Sequence record: ON470589.1
Source of the DNA: Escherichia phage vB_EcoP-611R6
Reading direction: 5' to 3' (one strand)
Length of the DNA stretch: 45,921 nt
The position numbers and the translations under genes were made by a program. Numbering within the stretch: the first letter of the stretch is position 1; each line of letters begins with the position of its first letter. Below, one piece after another: positions 19,182 through 24,554 of the stretch. Below the pieces are notes generated by a model that was given only the letters and a program-made list of their open reading frames with translations, was not told where the DNA came from and did not search any database.

Positions 19182-19366
19182 ACGCCACAATTCAAACGAT
19201 ACCAGAGCTTCTTATCCAGACACGAGGCAATCAGACCGAAGTGGCAAGGATGCTTTCCTGCGCAAGAGGAACAGTGCTCAAGTACAACCGAGACAGTAAA
19301 GGCGAGCGTCACGTAATAGTTAACGGCGTCCTGATGGTCAAACAAGGCAAGAGGGGAAGACGATGA
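19178..19366 (+). CDS. ninH: NinH-like protein
   Basis: 62 aa; GNQTEVAR...CSRGTV..Y motif as in lambda NinH. Confidence 0.7.
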   Translation: MNATIQTIPELLIQTRGNQTEVARMLSCARGTVLKYNRDSKGERHVIVNGVLMVKQGKRGRR

Positions 19367-19881
19367 GCATAAGAGAACTAAACCTCACCAAAGAGCAGCA
19401 CGAGTGGCTGAATGGCTGGCTTGAACTGTGGGGCGCATGGGTTTATTCAGGTCGTCTGGAAAAGCGCATGAGCAGCGTAATAGCGAAGTTCATGGAGAGC
19501 GTAGAGCCGGGAAGAGTTATGACAAGGCCAATGTGTAATGATGATGATGGAATGTTGATTTCTCAGGTCGTCGATTCCGTCATGTGCATTGACAAGAAAG
19601 CATTTGGCATCCTCCTCAGCTACTACGCTCATGGTTCATCTAAGCGAGCAATTGCATCCTACTATCACGCGACTGCAAAGCCACGCAAGATGTGTGGACG
19701 TGGTGGTGAGGGATGGAGAAAACCTTCACTGGCAACCTGTAGAAACGAAATTGACGACATCCTGAAAGCGTCGTTATTTGTTTTGTACCAGCCAATGCAA
19801 AATGCTTTCAAAATGCGTAAACGTGTTGAGAAAGTTAAGCATGTTGCTGTTAAAAGCCTTGACATGCAATTATCCATTTAG
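19363..19881 (+). CDS. Q: Late-gene antiterminator Q
   Basis: 172 aa; immediately precedes the pR'-tR' leader and lysis genes. Confidence 0.7.
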   Translation: MSIRELNLTKEQHEWLNGWLELWGAWVYSGRLEKRMSSVIAKFMESVEPGRVMTRPMCNDDDGMLISQVVDSVMCIDKKAFGILLSYYAHGSSKRAIASYYHATAKPRKMCGRGGEGWRKPSLATCRNEIDDILKASLFVLYQPMQNAFKMRKRVEKVKHVAVKSLDMQLSI

Positions 19882-20236
19882 CCATAATTAGAAGATAAGC
19901 TGCCGTTAGTGACTCTTAAGTTGCAATGGTGGCTTTTTTTGTTTGCACAACAGGTAAGAGCATTGAACCCGCAGACCTCGCGGAATTGGTGAAAGGTGCC
20001 GCGCAGTGCTCTTATCGTTGTGGTGAAGCTCAATGGCGAGCTAGCAGATAGGCGACAGTGAAAATACTAGTCATGTAGCTGACCGCCGCGCGTACTGCAA
20101 TCGGCAGCGCACCGATGGAAGCCGGTTCGATTCCGGCCGCCACAACCCAAACTGAGCCGTAGCCACTGGCTATCCTGAATTCATCAGTGATAGTTATGCT
20201 GCGGCCTTCTACGCATGACCTTCGTGAAAGCGGGTG

Positions 20237-20390: not shown

Positions 20391-20714
20391 ATGAAGATGC
20401 CAGAAAAACATGACCTGTTAGCCGCCATTCTCGCGGCAAAGGAACAAGGCATCGGGGCAATCCTTGCGTTTGCAATGGCGTACCTTCGCGGCAGATACAA
20501 TGGCGGTGCGTTTACAAAAACAGTAATCGACGCAACGATGTGCGCCATTATCGCCTGGTTCATTCGTGACCTTCTCGACTTCGCCGGACTAAGTAGCAAT
20601 CTCGCTTATATAACGAGCGTGTTCATCGGCTACATCGGTACTGACTCGATTGGTTCGCTTATCAAACGCTTCGCTGCTAAAAAAGCCGGAGTAGAAGATG
20701 GTGGAAATCAATAA
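20391..20714 (+). CDS. S: Class I holin, lambda S type (dual start M1-K2-M3)
   Basis: 107 aa, essentially identical to lambda S. Confidence 0.9.
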
Positions 20715-21174
20715 TCAACGTAAGGCGTTCCTCGATATGCTGGCGTGGTCAGAGGGAACTGATAACGGACGGCAGAAAACCAGAAATCATGGTTATGACG
20801 TCATTGTAGGCGGAGAGCTATTTACTGATTACTCCGATCACCCTCGCAAACTTGTCACGCTAAACCCCAAACTCAAATCAACAGCCGCCGGGCGCTACCA
20901 GCTTCTTTCCCGTTGGTGGGATGCCTACCGCAAGCAGCTTGGCCTGAAAGACTTCTCTCCGAAAAGCCAGGACGCTGTGGCACTGCAGCAGATTAAGGAG
21001 CGTGGCGCTTTACCGATGATTGACCGCGGTGATATTCGTCAGGCAATTGACCGTTGCAGCAATATCTGGGCTTCACTGCCGGGCGCTGGTTATGGTCAGT
21101 TCGAGCATAAGGCTGACAGCCTAATTGCAAAATTCAAAGAAGCAGGCGGAACGGTCAGAGAGATTGATGTATGA
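20698..21174 (+). CDS. R: Endolysin, lambda R-type lytic transglycosylase
   Basis: 158 aa, near-identical to lambda R. Confidence 0.9.
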
Positions 21175-21638
21175 GCAGAGTCACCGCGATTATCTCCGCT
21201 CTGGTTATCTGCATCATCGTCTGCCTGTCATGGGCGGTTAATCATTACCGTGATAACGCCATGACCTACAAAGAGCAGCGAGATAAAAAAGTCAGTGAGC
21301 TGAAGCAGGCGACCGCCACCATTACTCACATGCAGCAGCGCCAGCGTTCTGCTGATGCACTCGATGCTAAATACACGAAGGAGTTAGCTGATGCGAAAGC
21401 TGAAAATGATGCTCTTCGGCGCAAGCTTGATAATGGTGGTCGGGTGTTCGTCAAAGGAAAATGCCATATGCCATCCTCAGCCGAAACCTCCAGCGCCTCC
21501 GGCATGGGCAATGATGCCACCGTCGAACTCTCTCCAGTTGCTGGACGAAACGTTCTCGGTGTCCGGGGCGGAATTATCCGCGACCAAACAGCACTGAGAA
21601 CGCTTCAGGAATACATCAGGACGCAATGCCTTCGATGA
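21171..21638 (+). CDS. Rz: Spanin inner-membrane subunit Rz
   Basis: 155 aa; N-terminal TM helix and coiled-coil; lambda Rz-like. Confidence 0.85.
21391..21597 (+). CDS. Rz1: Spanin outer-membrane lipoprotein Rz1, embedded in Rz in the +1 frame
   Basis: Lipobox VVGC and Pro-rich mature region. Confidence 0.7.
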
Positions 21639-22017
21639 TAGCGATAATTTTACTCATCATCCTTCACATCTGGCTCTGTAGACAGGGTGGTGATCACTTC
21701 TGGAGTGAATCCAGATTAAACATCTCATTGCTGATGCTTGATATTGAGCATCTGGCGCGCGGTAAGGGGCTGCGTTGAGATAAGAGCCAGTTCATTACAA
21801 AGCCTATCTACGGGTGGGCTTGATAATGAAACCGGAATTTGTTCTAGGCAACCAGTTACGGCAGTACCACGAAGCAACCCAAGCCAGTAAGTGGGGGAAA
21901 TAACACTGGCAGCCACTGAAAGATGAACCTCCTGCCTTATGGCAAAAAAGATTCTTTGTGGTGGCGGACTGATGGAAAGACATCTTAATCAAGCAACCAC
22001 TCTACAGGGTCATAATT

Positions 22018-22356
22018 ATGAACGACCAGCAAATCGAAAAAGAAATCGTTGAGAAAGGCAAAACCGCCCAGCGCGTTACGCCAGACCATATCGAAAGCAT
22101 TATTCTTGCGGAAACGTACTTCACTGCTGCTGATGGAGCTATTGCAACTGGCGATGACTATCACGACAGTTTGGCTCTGCTGACATTTTGTGTATTGACT
22201 CTACAAAATGGCTTCACCGTCACCGGTGAAAGCGCCTGTGCAAGCCCGGAAAACTTTGATGCAGAAATTGGTCGGAAGATTGCCCGGCAAAATGCTGTAA
22301 ACAAAATCTGGATGCTCGAAGGTTACTTGCTGAAGCAGAAGCTAAGCGAACAGTAG
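22018..22356 (+). CDS. Gp49/Sf6 gp66-family protein (function unknown)
   Basis: 112 aa; flanked by imperfect 40-bp direct repeats; family assignment tentative. Confidence 0.5.
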   Translation: MNDQQIEKEIVEKGKTAQRVTPDHIESIILAETYFTAADGAIATGDDYHDSLALLTFCVLTLQNGFTVTGESACASPENFDAEIGRKIARQNAVNKIWMLEGYLLKQKLSEQ

Positions 22357-22459
22357 TTATTACAAAAGCCATTCCCTACAGAGTGGCTTTGATAATGGCT
22401 TATACCCTACACGGGATAACTTAACTGATATCCCTTTTAACGGATAAACGGAGCCAACA

Positions 22460-22702
22460 ATGGCAGAGATTATTCCCATGACTGAAGAACAGAAATTCCA
22501 GTTAGAGATTTACAAACTGGTCATGAACCAGAACGCAGCCGCAGAAGAAGCATTTCAATTCATTGGCACTGACGAGCTGAAGCTTGAGCTATTCAAAATT
22601 CACTTCCAGTCAGGCGGCGCTAATTCAGATATCACGACCCGCACTATCGAAGCGGTGCGTAAATCGAAGGAAGCGTTAGACCTGTTCACTACCGGAGCAT
22701 AA
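22460..22702 (+). CDS. Hypothetical protein upstream of terminase
   Basis: 80 aa ORF, 2 nt before the terminase small subunit. Confidence 0.45.
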   Translation: MAEIIPMTEEQKFQLEIYKLVMNQNAAAEEAFQFIGTDELKLELFKIHFQSGGANSDITTRTIEAVRKSKEALDLFTTGA

Positions 22703-22704
22703 AC

Positions 22705-23145
22705 ATGGCGCGCCCAACGAAGTATCAAGAGGCGTATGCCGAACAGGCACGCAAACTGTGCTTGCTGGGCTATACAGACGCCGAACTCGCGGACTTCTTT
22801 GAAGTTAGCGAGGCAACAATCAACAATTGGAAATTGGAATATCCGGAGTTTTTAGAGTCCATAAAAAAGGGTAAGGCCGTCGCTGATGCAGAAGTTAGTG
22901 ATCGTCTTTATCAACGCGCTATGGGCTTCGTGGCTCCAGACATCGATATTCGTGTTATTGAAAACAGAATTGTCGAAACTCCGCTTGAGAAGTATTACCC
23001 GCCTGATACAACCGCCGCCATCTTCTGGCTTAAGAACCGACAGAAGGATAAATGGCGCGATAAGGTTGATCACGAGCTAACAGGCAAAGACGGCGGCGCA
23101 ATCCAGATTGAAACATCACCGATGAGCACTCTATTCGGAAAATGA
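22705..23145 (+). CDS. Terminase small subunit (Sf6-like)
   Basis: 146 aa; N-terminal HTH; ATGA overlap with the large subunit. Confidence 0.7.
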   Translation: MARPTKYQEAYAEQARKLCLLGYTDAELADFFEVSEATINNWKLEYPEFLESIKKGKAVADAEVSDRLYQRAMGFVAPDIDIRVIENRIVETPLEKYYPPDTTAAIFWLKNRQKDKWRDKVDHELTGKDGGAIQIETSPMSTLFGK

Positions 23146-24554
23146 CCTCGATTAATCCTATCTTTGAACCGTTCATTGAGGCGCATCGCTACAAAGTCGC
23201 CAAAGGCGGTCGAGGTAGCGGTAAGTCATGGGCAATTGCGAGGCTGCTTGTTGAAGCGGCGCGTCGGCAGCCTGTGCGTATTCTCTGCGCTCGTGAACTG
23301 CAAAACAGTATCAGCGATTCGGTAATCCGGTTGCTTGAAGATACCATCGAGCGTGAAGGGTATTCGGCTGAGTTTGAAATTCAGCGTTCAATGATTCGTC
23401 ATTTCGGAACGAATGCTGAATTCATGTTCTACGGCATAAAAAACAACCCGACGAAGATTAAATCGCTCGAAGGCATTGATATCTGCTGGGTGGAAGAAGC
23501 GGAAGCGGTAACGAAGGAATCATGGGATATCCTGATTCCAACCATCCGTAAGCCGTTCTCTGAAATATGGGTGAGCTTTAACCCGAAGAACATCCTCGAC
23601 GATACCTATCAGCGATTCGTCGTAAATCCTCCTGATGATATTTGTCTGCTGACGGTGAACTACACCGACAACCCGCACTTTCCTGAAGTTCTCCGTCTGG
23701 AGATGGAAGAGTGTAAACGCAGAAACCCGACACTGTATCGTCACATCTGGCTGGGTGAGCCAGTAAGCGCAAGTGATATGGCAATCATCAAACGTGAATG
23801 GCTTGAAGCCGCAACCGATGCGCACAAGAAACTCGGATGGAAAGCGAAAGGCGCTGTTGTCTCTGCGCATGACCCGTCAGATACAGGGCCAGATGCTAAA
23901 GGTTATGCATCGCGTCACGGTTCTGTAGTTAAGCGCATTGCCGAAGGTCTGCTGATGGACATCAACGAGGGTGCTGACTGGGCTACTTCGCTGGCGATTG
24001 AAGACGGCGCTGACCACTACCTGTGGGATGGTGATGGTGTTGGTGCTGGGCTACGCAGACAGACAACGGAAGCGTTCTCCGGCAAGAAAATCACCGCCAC
24101 GATGTTCAAGGGCAGCGAATCGCCATTCGATGAAGATGCTCCGTATCAGGCCGGAGCATGGGCTGATGAAGTCGTACAGGGCGACAACGTTCGCACTATT
24201 GGCGATGTGTTCCGCAATAAGCGAGCGCAATTCTATTACGCGCTGGCTGACAGGCTGTATCTGACATATCGGGCGGTTGTCCATGGTGAGTATGCAGACC
24301 CCGACGACATGCTGAGTTTCGACAAAGAAGCGATAGGCGAGAAGATGCTGGAGAAGCTGTTTGCAGAACTTACGCAGATTCAGCGCAAATTCAATAACAA
24401 CGGGAAGCTGGAGCTTATGACTAAGGTCGAAATGAAGCAGAAGCTCGGTATCCCATCTCCTAACCTGGCTGATGCGCTGATGATGTGTATGCATTGCCCG
24501 GCATTGGTCCGCGAAGAAACAGAAATATACGTTCCCTCATCCTCCGGTTGGTAA
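23142..24554 (+). CDS. Terminase large subunit (ATPase/nuclease)
   Basis: 470 aa; Walker A KGGRGSGKS. Confidence 0.9.
   Translation: MTSINPIFEPFIEAHRYKVAKGGRGSGKSWAIARLLVEAARRQPVRILCARELQNSISDSVIRLLEDTIEREGYSAEFEIQRSMIRHFGTNAEFMFYGIKNNPTKIKSLEGIDICWVEEAEAVTKESWDILIPTIRKPFSEIWVSFNPKNILDDTYQRFVVNPPDDICLLTVNYTDNPHFPEVLRLEMEECKRRNPTLYRHIWLGEPVSASDMAIIKREWLEAATDAHKKLGWKAKGAVVSAHDPSDTGPDAKGYASRHGSVVKRIAEGLLMDINEGADWATSLAIEDGADHYLWDGDGVGAGLRRQTTEAFSGKKITATMFKGSESPFDEDAPYQAGAWADEVVQGDNVRTIGDVFRNKRAQFYYALADRLYLTYRAVVHGEYADPDDMLSFDKEAIGEKMLEKLFAELTQIQRKFNNNGKLELMTKVEMKQKLGIPSPNLADALMMCMHCPALVREETEIYVPSSSGW

Follow-up and report, generated by a model that had tools for sequence, protein, structure and literature searches.

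Two hairpins between the lysis and terminase genes

Between the lysis and terminase genes of Escherichia phage vB_EcoP-611R6 (ON470589.1; the 45,921 nt analyzed are referred to here as the window), two imperfect direct repeats flank a gene for a protein of 112 aa, and each repeat is a conserved hairpin on the sense strand of the late operon. The 1.1 kb that we queried around them is identical to the P22-like Lederbergvirus Escherichia phage vB_EcoP-683R2 (ON470594). Downstream of the Q antiterminator gene (19363-19881), the operon runs through holin (20391-20714), endolysin (20698-21174) and Rz (21171-21638, with Rz1 nested within it) to a small 47-aa open reading frame (ORF) that resembles gene 65 of Sf6 (21635-21778, + strand; phrog_11822, E 8.7e-35). 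Hairpin A (21791-21830, + strand), a non-coding stretch of ~190 bp (21829-22017) and the gp66/Gp49-family gene follow; the latter (22018-22356, + strand) matches PF13876 (Phage_gp49_66) with a Pfam E of 1.7e-34 and belongs to phrog_322, a family of unknown function. Hairpin B (22356-22399, + strand) is then followed by the leader (22400-22459, + strand) of a DUF2560 gene (22460-22702, + strand; Pfam PF10834, E 1.1e-43), the counterpart of Sf6 gene 67 and P22 orf80. This is the first conserved gene 3' of both hairpins, and the genes for the small terminase (22705-23145; phrog_309, E 4e-67) and the large terminase (23142-24554) come next.

The repeats had been described in an earlier note on this DNA, and that observation is partly confirmed: it is real, yet imprecisely located. 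The alignment holds, and a covariance model recovers both copies. Copy 1 had been placed correctly (21794-21828); copy 2 had been put at 22368-22409 and actually occupies 22359-22397, ~10 nt further left. The two bracket the 112-aa ORF as described, copy 1 lying 189 nt upstream of the gp66 start and copy 2 beginning inside the gp66 stop codon or 2 nt past it. Indels included, 30 of 39 aligned columns are identical, and the identical stretches common to the copies measure only 8 nt and 11-13 nt. Their local alignment score of 29 compares with whole-window shuffle maxima of 22.3 +/- 1.7 (largest 27), a difference of ~4 standard deviations, so the similarity of sequence alone is modestly above chance. 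The covariance model finds exactly two places in the 45.9-kb window, 22356-22399 (59.9 bits) and 21791-21830 (58.3 bits), with a next-best score on the + strand of 12 bits.

Two further statements about the interval required correction. A third copy of a repeat motif, CCCTACACGGG, had been reported at 22414; it lies at 22405-22415, within the DUF2560 leader, which also contains a small local hairpin by folding, and it is not a copy. The motif resembles only the loop of copy 2, such matches occur at chance level (6 found vs 4.2 expected), and neither the covariance model of the hairpin family nor motif searches for a third copy detected one there. The 380 bp upstream of gp66 had been thought to contain no convincing gene. 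This holds for 21829-22017, which is non-coding, but not for 21635-21778, where the gene-65 homologue is a conserved gene, annotated as a coding sequence in ON470594, Sf6, epsilon34, Huey and Kapi1. Its start overlaps the Rz stop codon (ATGA), and its own stop is 12 nt 5' of hairpin A and 15 nt 5' of the repeat core (21794). It is the upstream cassette.

Anatomy and covariation of the hairpins

Both copies are imperfect palindromes. On the + strand, each folds into an A/U-rich lower stem of 7-8 bp (core AUUA/UAAU) and an upper stem of 9-10 bp, separated by a 2x2 internal loop with CA opposite GA. In hairpin A (core 21794-21828), the lower stem pairs 21791-97 with 21824-30, the internal loop is formed by CA at 21798-99 and GA at 21822-23, and the upper stem (21800-08/21813-21) is closed by the loop UACG (21809-12). 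The fold has a free energy of -20.4 kcal/mol (z -5.45), against just -14.4 for the minus strand. Hairpin B (core 22359-22397) is built in the same way, with a lower stem at 22356-62/22393-99, CA at 22363-64 opposite GA at 22391-92, an upper stem at 22365-74/22381-90 and the loop CCUACA at 22375-80; its free energy is -20.6 kcal/mol (z -6.27). No Rfam covariance model matches 21500-22500 at E<=1.

The structure was compared across several hundred related loci, drawn from GenBank phages, IMG/VR and E. coli genomes. Beyond types A and B of the window, further types have wholly different yet complementary mid-stems: GAGRCC/GGUCUC in type C, GCAGGC/GCCUGU in type D, AAGCGUCUC/GGGGCGCUU in type E, GAAGUCCUU/AGGGGCUUC and GAAGCCAUUC/GAGUGGCUUC in types G and H, and, in others, GGGUGUAUU/GAGUGCACCC and AAAAUGAGAA/UUUUCAUUUU. 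The ends are conserved (CATTACA and GATAATG in DNA; an invariant base CAUUA..UAAUG in RNA). Across 34 distinct variants, pairing is kept in 95.5% of cells, and both sides have changed at 10 of 17 pairs (79 cells). Controls with a slid register are only 33-52% paired, and the covariation score of 0.524, against 0.279 in shuffles, was reached by none of 500 shuffles. Within types, 17-19 stem transitions preserve the pairing and 3 disrupt it.

Several features assign this structure to a strand. Of 82 unique variants, 76 are more stable as the + strand (-19.6 vs -14.2 kcal/mol), and G.U pairs, which make up 13% of all pairs, have their U on the 5' arm 152 times and on the 3' arm 13 times. The selected structure thus belongs to the sense strand of the late operon and points to RNA.

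The hairpins mark mosaic joints

The hairpins lie where unrelated sequences meet. Among 128 type A copies, at least ten unrelated upstream sequences converge exactly at C|ATTACA, and at least four sequence families part just 3' of GATAATGAAACC; a conserved island of 40 nt thus lies between at least ten unrelated left flanks and at least four right flanks. For many phages, the megablast match to the window has its start at query position 194 (window position 21793), which was counted as the first base of the hairpin. The upstream ORFs belong to ~15 unrelated families, including hkbL-like genes, gene 65, Rha, a Tad2-like anti-Thoeris domain protein, a T5orf172/MUG113 nuclease-like protein, a trypsin-like protein and gp66, and their stop codons are 2-43 nt from the hairpin. 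In at least six unrelated cases, the upstream gene ends in GTAG and exactly 2 nt separate this ending from the hairpin (e.g. locus L003, 2621-2635; locus L007, 2278-2292; window 22350-22358). TAG is a rare stop codon, and these endings may reflect an extension of the lower stem against GGCU or an element that supplies the stop codon.

On the downstream side, a hairpin of the family directly precedes the DUF2560 leader in all 167 IMG/VR copies and takes one of three forms. The first is type C, after a remnant of the spacer described below. The second is type B, after gp66 or other cassettes and sometimes 7 nt past a canonical terminator. The third is a hybrid in which a type A top is joined straight to the leader, that is, to the right flank of copy 2; such an A/B hybrid is the product expected of recombination between the two copies of the window. 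Where gp66 is missing, phages have either a single hybrid hairpin or one of a third type. The tops of the hairpins are linked to the downstream sequence and not to the upstream cassette. The interval from Rz to DUF2560 measures 300-4,800 bp and holds 1-4 hairpins, all in sense orientation; in one locus they are arrayed as A, C, A', D. The hairpin also sits between lysis genes and unrelated terminase genes in E. coli prophages, and near-identical copies are present in at least 419 (type B) and at least 298 (type A) of 5,426 complete E. coli genomes. It was not found in the K-12 prophages DLP12 and Qin.

A scan of genome contigs with DUF2560 gave 7 loci only. A viral scan with a divergent homologue from Citrobacter was more productive. 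In a second DUF2560 lineage, more members of the family (GUUAUUACAAAGCGUCUCU..GGGGCGCUUGAUAAUAAC, ~40 bits) lie 600-900 nt downstream of DUF2560 (L273, 3652-3691; L266, 3522-3561; L276, 3406-3445; L283, 3339-3378), which implies that cassettes located between DUF2560 and the terminase genes can be bordered by the hairpin as well.

Hairpin A is accompanied by a highly conserved non-coding spacer of ~126 nt (ACGGCAGTAC...ATGGAAAGACATC; 21859-21984 in the window), which travels with it. Its identity is 90-100% across 162 phage records, P22, HK022, mEp234 and an Stx2a phage among them, and it is unchanged whatever flanks it on either side. It is not coding, because its runs of G and A contain 1-nt indels, and no significant fold was found on either strand. 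We considered a small RNA in the 190-bp stretch and rejected it, given this lack of a fold and an expression table for BTP1 that contains no non-coding RNA between rha and pid; the BTP1 transcript STnc6030 maps elsewhere, antisense to the tailspike gene. A start of Sf6 gp66 at ATGGAAAGACATC, with the window copy being frameshifted, was rejected as well, since the 126-aa forms of the protein also start with MNDQQ and differ by an internal insertion.

Two phages have an insertion at or next to a hairpin. In epsilon34 (L004, 1690-2400), hairpin A is split after CATTACAAA by a cassette consisting of a canonical Rho-independent terminator and a gene of 161 aa, annotated in RefSeq as a GIY-YIG nuclease; it looks like a free-standing nuclease gene that landed in the hairpin. 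We had considered whether the annotated 'Rho-independent terminator' of epsilon34 was the hairpin itself, and rejected this, as it is a separate terminator inserted together with the GIY-YIG-type gene. In P22 (L208, 1710-2400), pid is inserted in inverse orientation exactly 10 nt after a type C hairpin, past GGCTTATACC, where it replaces most of the orf80 leader and does not end at a hairpin. The annotated P22 orf25 (1730-1807), which overlaps the hairpin, is probably not a gene.

Likeness to the RNase III sites of T7 and T3

The hairpins resemble the RNase III processing sites of T7 and T3 in sequence as well as in shape. This likeness was unexpected and surfaced when the R1.1 and R1.3 regions of T7 were folded for a comparison of architecture. 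The upper stem and loop of copy 2, AAAGCCAUUC[CCUACA]GAGUGGCUUU, can be set beside AAGGUCAUUC[GCAA]GAGUGGCCUU of T7 R1.1, and those of copy 1, AAGCCUAUC[UACG]GGUGGGCUU, beside AGGUCAUC[UGCG]GGUGGCCU of T7 R1.

We compared the two families with covariance models in both directions, using one model trained on the lambdoid hairpins only (model R1) and one built from 13 T3/T7 sites (model R2). As a reference we used the T3 record, which annotates ten stem-loops as 'RNase III recognition site'. Model R1 has 13 matches in T3 at E<=10, and seven of these, at five of nine distinct places, fall inside annotated sites, namely R1.3 (the best, 19.1 bits), R4.7, R1.1, R0.5 and R18.5. Because the annotated sites make up ~1.3% of the T3 genome, a binomial estimate gives this overlap a P of ~3e-7. 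In T7, the top matches of model R1 are places homologous, by alignment, to T3 sites; we take them to be R1.1, R1, R18.5, R0.5 and R0.3 of Dunn and Studier (1983). In the reverse direction, model R2 has five matches in the window at E<=10, three of them on the two hairpins, with hairpin B at rank 2; in a further 36 kb of related loci, hairpin A of HK620 comes first and hairpin C of P22 second.

The likeness extends to the positions read by the enzyme. E. coli RNase III recognises a distal box, with UA/UG as the optimal form, 2 bp away from a 4-bp proximal box, and internal loops limit cleavage to one strand, leaving a protective 3' hairpin (Pertzev and Nicholson, PMC1540722). Among the 34 variants of the hairpin family, 27 have A-U at the first of the corresponding pairs and 29 have a U.G wobble at the second; both lie at the same distance from the base of the stem as in the T7/T3 sites. 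The design is also that of an RNase III signal, being an intercistronic hairpin of about two turns, at the short end of the range, with an internal loop and on the mRNA strand. Types E-H fit this likeness less well.

Interpretation

We consider it probable, at roughly 0.6, that these elements are intercistronic processing or stabiliser hairpins of the RNase III type that double as boundary sequences of cassettes. The hairpins lie in the late polycistronic, Q-antiterminated transcript, just past the stop codons of the cassettes, where host RNase III is predicted to cut at the internal loop, at ~21823^21824 and ~22392^22393. The 28-nt product of R1.1 serves as the analogy for placing these cuts 2 nt below the upper stem. 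Such a cut would give each cassette mRNA a protective 3' stem-loop and would split the transcript into a lysis and accessory part and a part encoding DUF2560, terminase and head proteins, with a presumed effect on expression. At the DNA level, an element that must stay intact beside each gene would persist as a 40-bp island of identity between unrelated sequences, and this island may serve as a crossover or selection point for the gain, loss and replacement of cassettes among lambdoid phages, possibly with the hairpin itself as a substrate of recombination.

The earlier note had suggested promoters, regulatory sites or the footprints of a small inserted cassette. This is partly supported, as the hairpins are better read as regulatory elements and cassette borders and not as promoters. 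A regulatory role agrees with repeats that are conserved sense-strand hairpins of the late operon. The cassette idea stands insofar as a module of spacer, gp66 and hairpin B is present or absent among relatives and the region is not uniformly conserved in phages without the gene, and fails insofar as the repeats are not target-site duplications of a transposon.

Several observations weigh against the RNase III interpretation or parts of it. The matches between the two families are individually weak (E 0.02 to 7) and cover the upper stem only; model R2 does not recover the divergent types E-H in the 36 kb of related loci, and these types have no A-U at the distal box. The internal loop is a symmetric 2x2 (CA/GA) and not the 4x5 of T7/T3, and the helix of 16-18 bp plus loop is at the short end for an enzyme that usually requires about two turns (PMC1540722). 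In type C, a G-C pair sits beside the internal loop and would reduce cleavage if it occupied position 4 of the proximal box, although this mapping is uncertain (PMC1540722). In the second DUF2560 lineage, the hairpin is absent from ~12 of 45 distinct upstream regions, making the element dispensable. As for recombination, the stretches of identity shared by A and B are short for such a role, and the pattern of joints could equally come from illegitimate joins followed by selection that keeps the hairpin intact.

Among the alternatives, the one that survives best is a generic structure that stabilises or insulates mRNA in the manner of repetitive extragenic palindromic (REP) elements, acting as a barrier to 3' exonucleases without RNase III. 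A stable hairpin on the sense strand 2-43 nt past stop codons is what such a barrier would look like, and the covariation likewise shows a structure under selection. We nevertheless regard this explanation as unlikely, because it leaves unexplained the invariant base CAUUA..UAAUG, the CA/GA loop and the U.G wobble, as well as the fact that the T3/T7 RNase III sites are the best cross-matches.

Less probable still is a role as terminators that protect the prophage against read-through from moron promoters and are ignored by Q-modified polymerase during lytic growth. The place after accessory genes would suit a moron terminator, the tails of copies A and B are in part U-rich (UUGAUAAU), and the experimentally studied pid moron at the same site in P22 has its own terminator (PMC8835761). 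The hairpins themselves do not have the G+C-rich stem followed by a U-tract that defines an intrinsic terminator: their tails are GAUAAUGA and GAUAAUGG, type C, the commonest, is followed by GACAAUGG with no U-tract, and a terminator scan calls neither hairpin of the window. At ~25 loci a canonical terminator precedes hairpin B by 7 nt and would make a second one redundant, and what is annotated as a terminator in epsilon34 is another element, brought in by an insertion.

We give equally little credence to a DNA-level recombination site, in which folded single-stranded DNA or a cruciform would be recognised by a recombinase or nuclease and cassettes would move site-specifically, much as at integron attC sites. 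The conserved, inverted ends and the variable but covarying centre would fit such a site, as would hairpins at the 3' ends of single-ORF cassettes, arrays of up to four, and at least ten unrelated left flanks joined at the same nucleotide. Against this, the loci have no recombinase gene in common, the R boxes of attC (RYYYAAC/GTTRRRY) are absent, the hairpin tops travel with the downstream sequence instead of the upstream cassette, and the likeness to RNase III sites would go unexplained.

The idea that the repeats are sigma-70 promoters for gp66 and DUF2560 derives from -35-like and -10-like hexamers at their ends (TTACAA ... GATAAT) and is very improbable: the hexamers are 21 and 25 bp apart, where a promoter would have 16-18 bp, a promoter scan calls nothing, papers reporting differential RNA sequencing of BTP1 give no transcription start site here, and the hexamers covary as pairing partners (ATTA/TAAT -> ATTG/CAAT). 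Chance similarity, or target-site duplications of a transposed gp66, can practically be dismissed despite a sequence similarity just ~4 standard deviations above shuffles, as hundreds of loci have the same hairpin with compensatory changes, phages without gp66 have it too, and the copies here are imperfect, 35 and 39 nt long, with gp66 as the sole gene between them and no transposase.

The interpretation as RNase III hairpins at cassette borders can be extended, tentatively, to a plug-and-play system, a scenario that we offer as a possibility in which we place limited confidence. Cassettes between the lysis and terminase genes would move between unrelated phages (P22-like, HK022/HK97-like, lambda-like and Stx) as units of ORF plus hairpin; T7-type RNase III joints would give ready-made 3' ends to accessory and anti-defence genes and would also be preferred sites of DNA crossover, by way of short homology or of breakage promoted by the hairpin. 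That the upper stems are nearly identical to those of T7 and T3 would then reflect an exchange of the signal between virulent and temperate coliphages.

We found no published description of these hairpins in searches of the literature by topic or by motif sequence. The hairpin provides a marker, in both sequence and structure, for the borders of accessory cassettes in a very common prophage hot spot, and can help in the search for new anti-defence or moron genes. It also suggests that RNase III processing, a textbook property of T7, organises the late transcripts of temperate lambdoid phages as well, for which we found no report. Finally, the locus is a test case for the old dispute over whether the mosaic joints of phages form at random or at functional 'linker' sequences, the linker in this case being one that would be retained for its role in RNA.

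Annotations in the neighborhood

Some public annotations around the locus call for comment. In ON470594, the gene at 22705-23145 is named 'HNH homing endonuclease'; this name appears wrong, because the product matches the terminase small subunit and the gene lies directly 5' of that for the large terminase. The same record annotates a 'polyubiquitin-A' coding sequence in the gap between Q and holin (window 19926-20051), and both the name and the coding sequence are doubtful in the late-leader region of a phage. This gap holds tRNA genes in Sf6 and Kapi1. ARAGORN found no tRNA genes in that of the window, where Rfam gives only a sub-threshold fragment of the transfer-messenger RNA clan (20090-20148; 20 bits vs a gathering score of 47). 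Elsewhere in the window, AAACCCACC-UGAC-GGUGGGUUU (37799-37845, - strand) is a weak match of both RNA models and lies between the convergent ORFs 36776-37807 (+ strand) and 37823-38077 (- strand; Arc/Mnt-like). We rejected it as a member of the family, since it looks like an ordinary bidirectional terminator.

Comparison with known systems

The hairpins share features with several known elements. Like integron attC sites, they are imperfect palindromes 3' of promoterless single-gene cassettes, with inverted conserved ends and a covarying center. Unlike attC, they have no R''/R' cores and no IntI, are 40 nt long instead of 57-141 nt, and have tops that are linked to the downstream DNA; no recombinase gene is present among the genes annotated around the locus. 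REP elements of E. coli stabilise upstream mRNA and, like the hairpins, are imperfect palindromes of ~35-40 nt just past stop codons inside operons. Their sequence is different, the chromosome has hundreds of them, and RAYT transposases mobilise them, whereas each phage here has two copies and no RAYT.

Closer parallels exist among phages. In the PeSL cassettes of T4-like phages (PMC2839356, PMC4122927), conserved stem-loops flank non-essential ORFs in a hyperplastic region and mark where insertions, deletions and replacements between related phages begin and end, as the hairpins do here. A PeSL combines a strong sigma-70 early promoter with a terminator stem-loop, whereas the lambdoid element is a stem-loop that has neither function; PeSLs also form mini-circles (PMC2839356, PMC4122927). 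The boundary sequences (bsq) of lambdoid phages are likewise short conserved sequences between unrelated modules at mosaic joints. They were reportedly set out by Clark and colleagues in 2001 in work on HK620. The GenBank record of Sf6, which annotates bsq2-bsq7 and many regulatory sites, marks nothing on either hairpin, and the covarying RNA structure of the hairpins suggests a primary function other than recombination.

The best parallel is with the RNase III signals of T7 and T3 (R0.3, R0.5, R1, R1.1, R1.3, R4.7 and R18.5). These too are hairpins of the sense strand between cistrons, in which an internal loop separates an A/U-rich lower stem from 9-10 bp of upper stem; their upper stems are near-identical to those described here, the distal box is the same (A-U, U.G), and the covariance models match reciprocally. 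The hairpins of the lambdoid phages differ in having a 2x2 loop (CA/GA) in place of the 4x5 loop (ACUC/UAUGA) and a shorter lower stem (5-8 bp), and in occurring in only 1-4 copies at one hot spot. They also differ in their setting, a temperate lambdoid phage transcribed by E. coli polymerase under Q antitermination, and in that their cleavage is a prediction. The hairpins are best filed as RNase III processing signals of a known kind in a new setting, the cassette joints of a lambdoid late operon.

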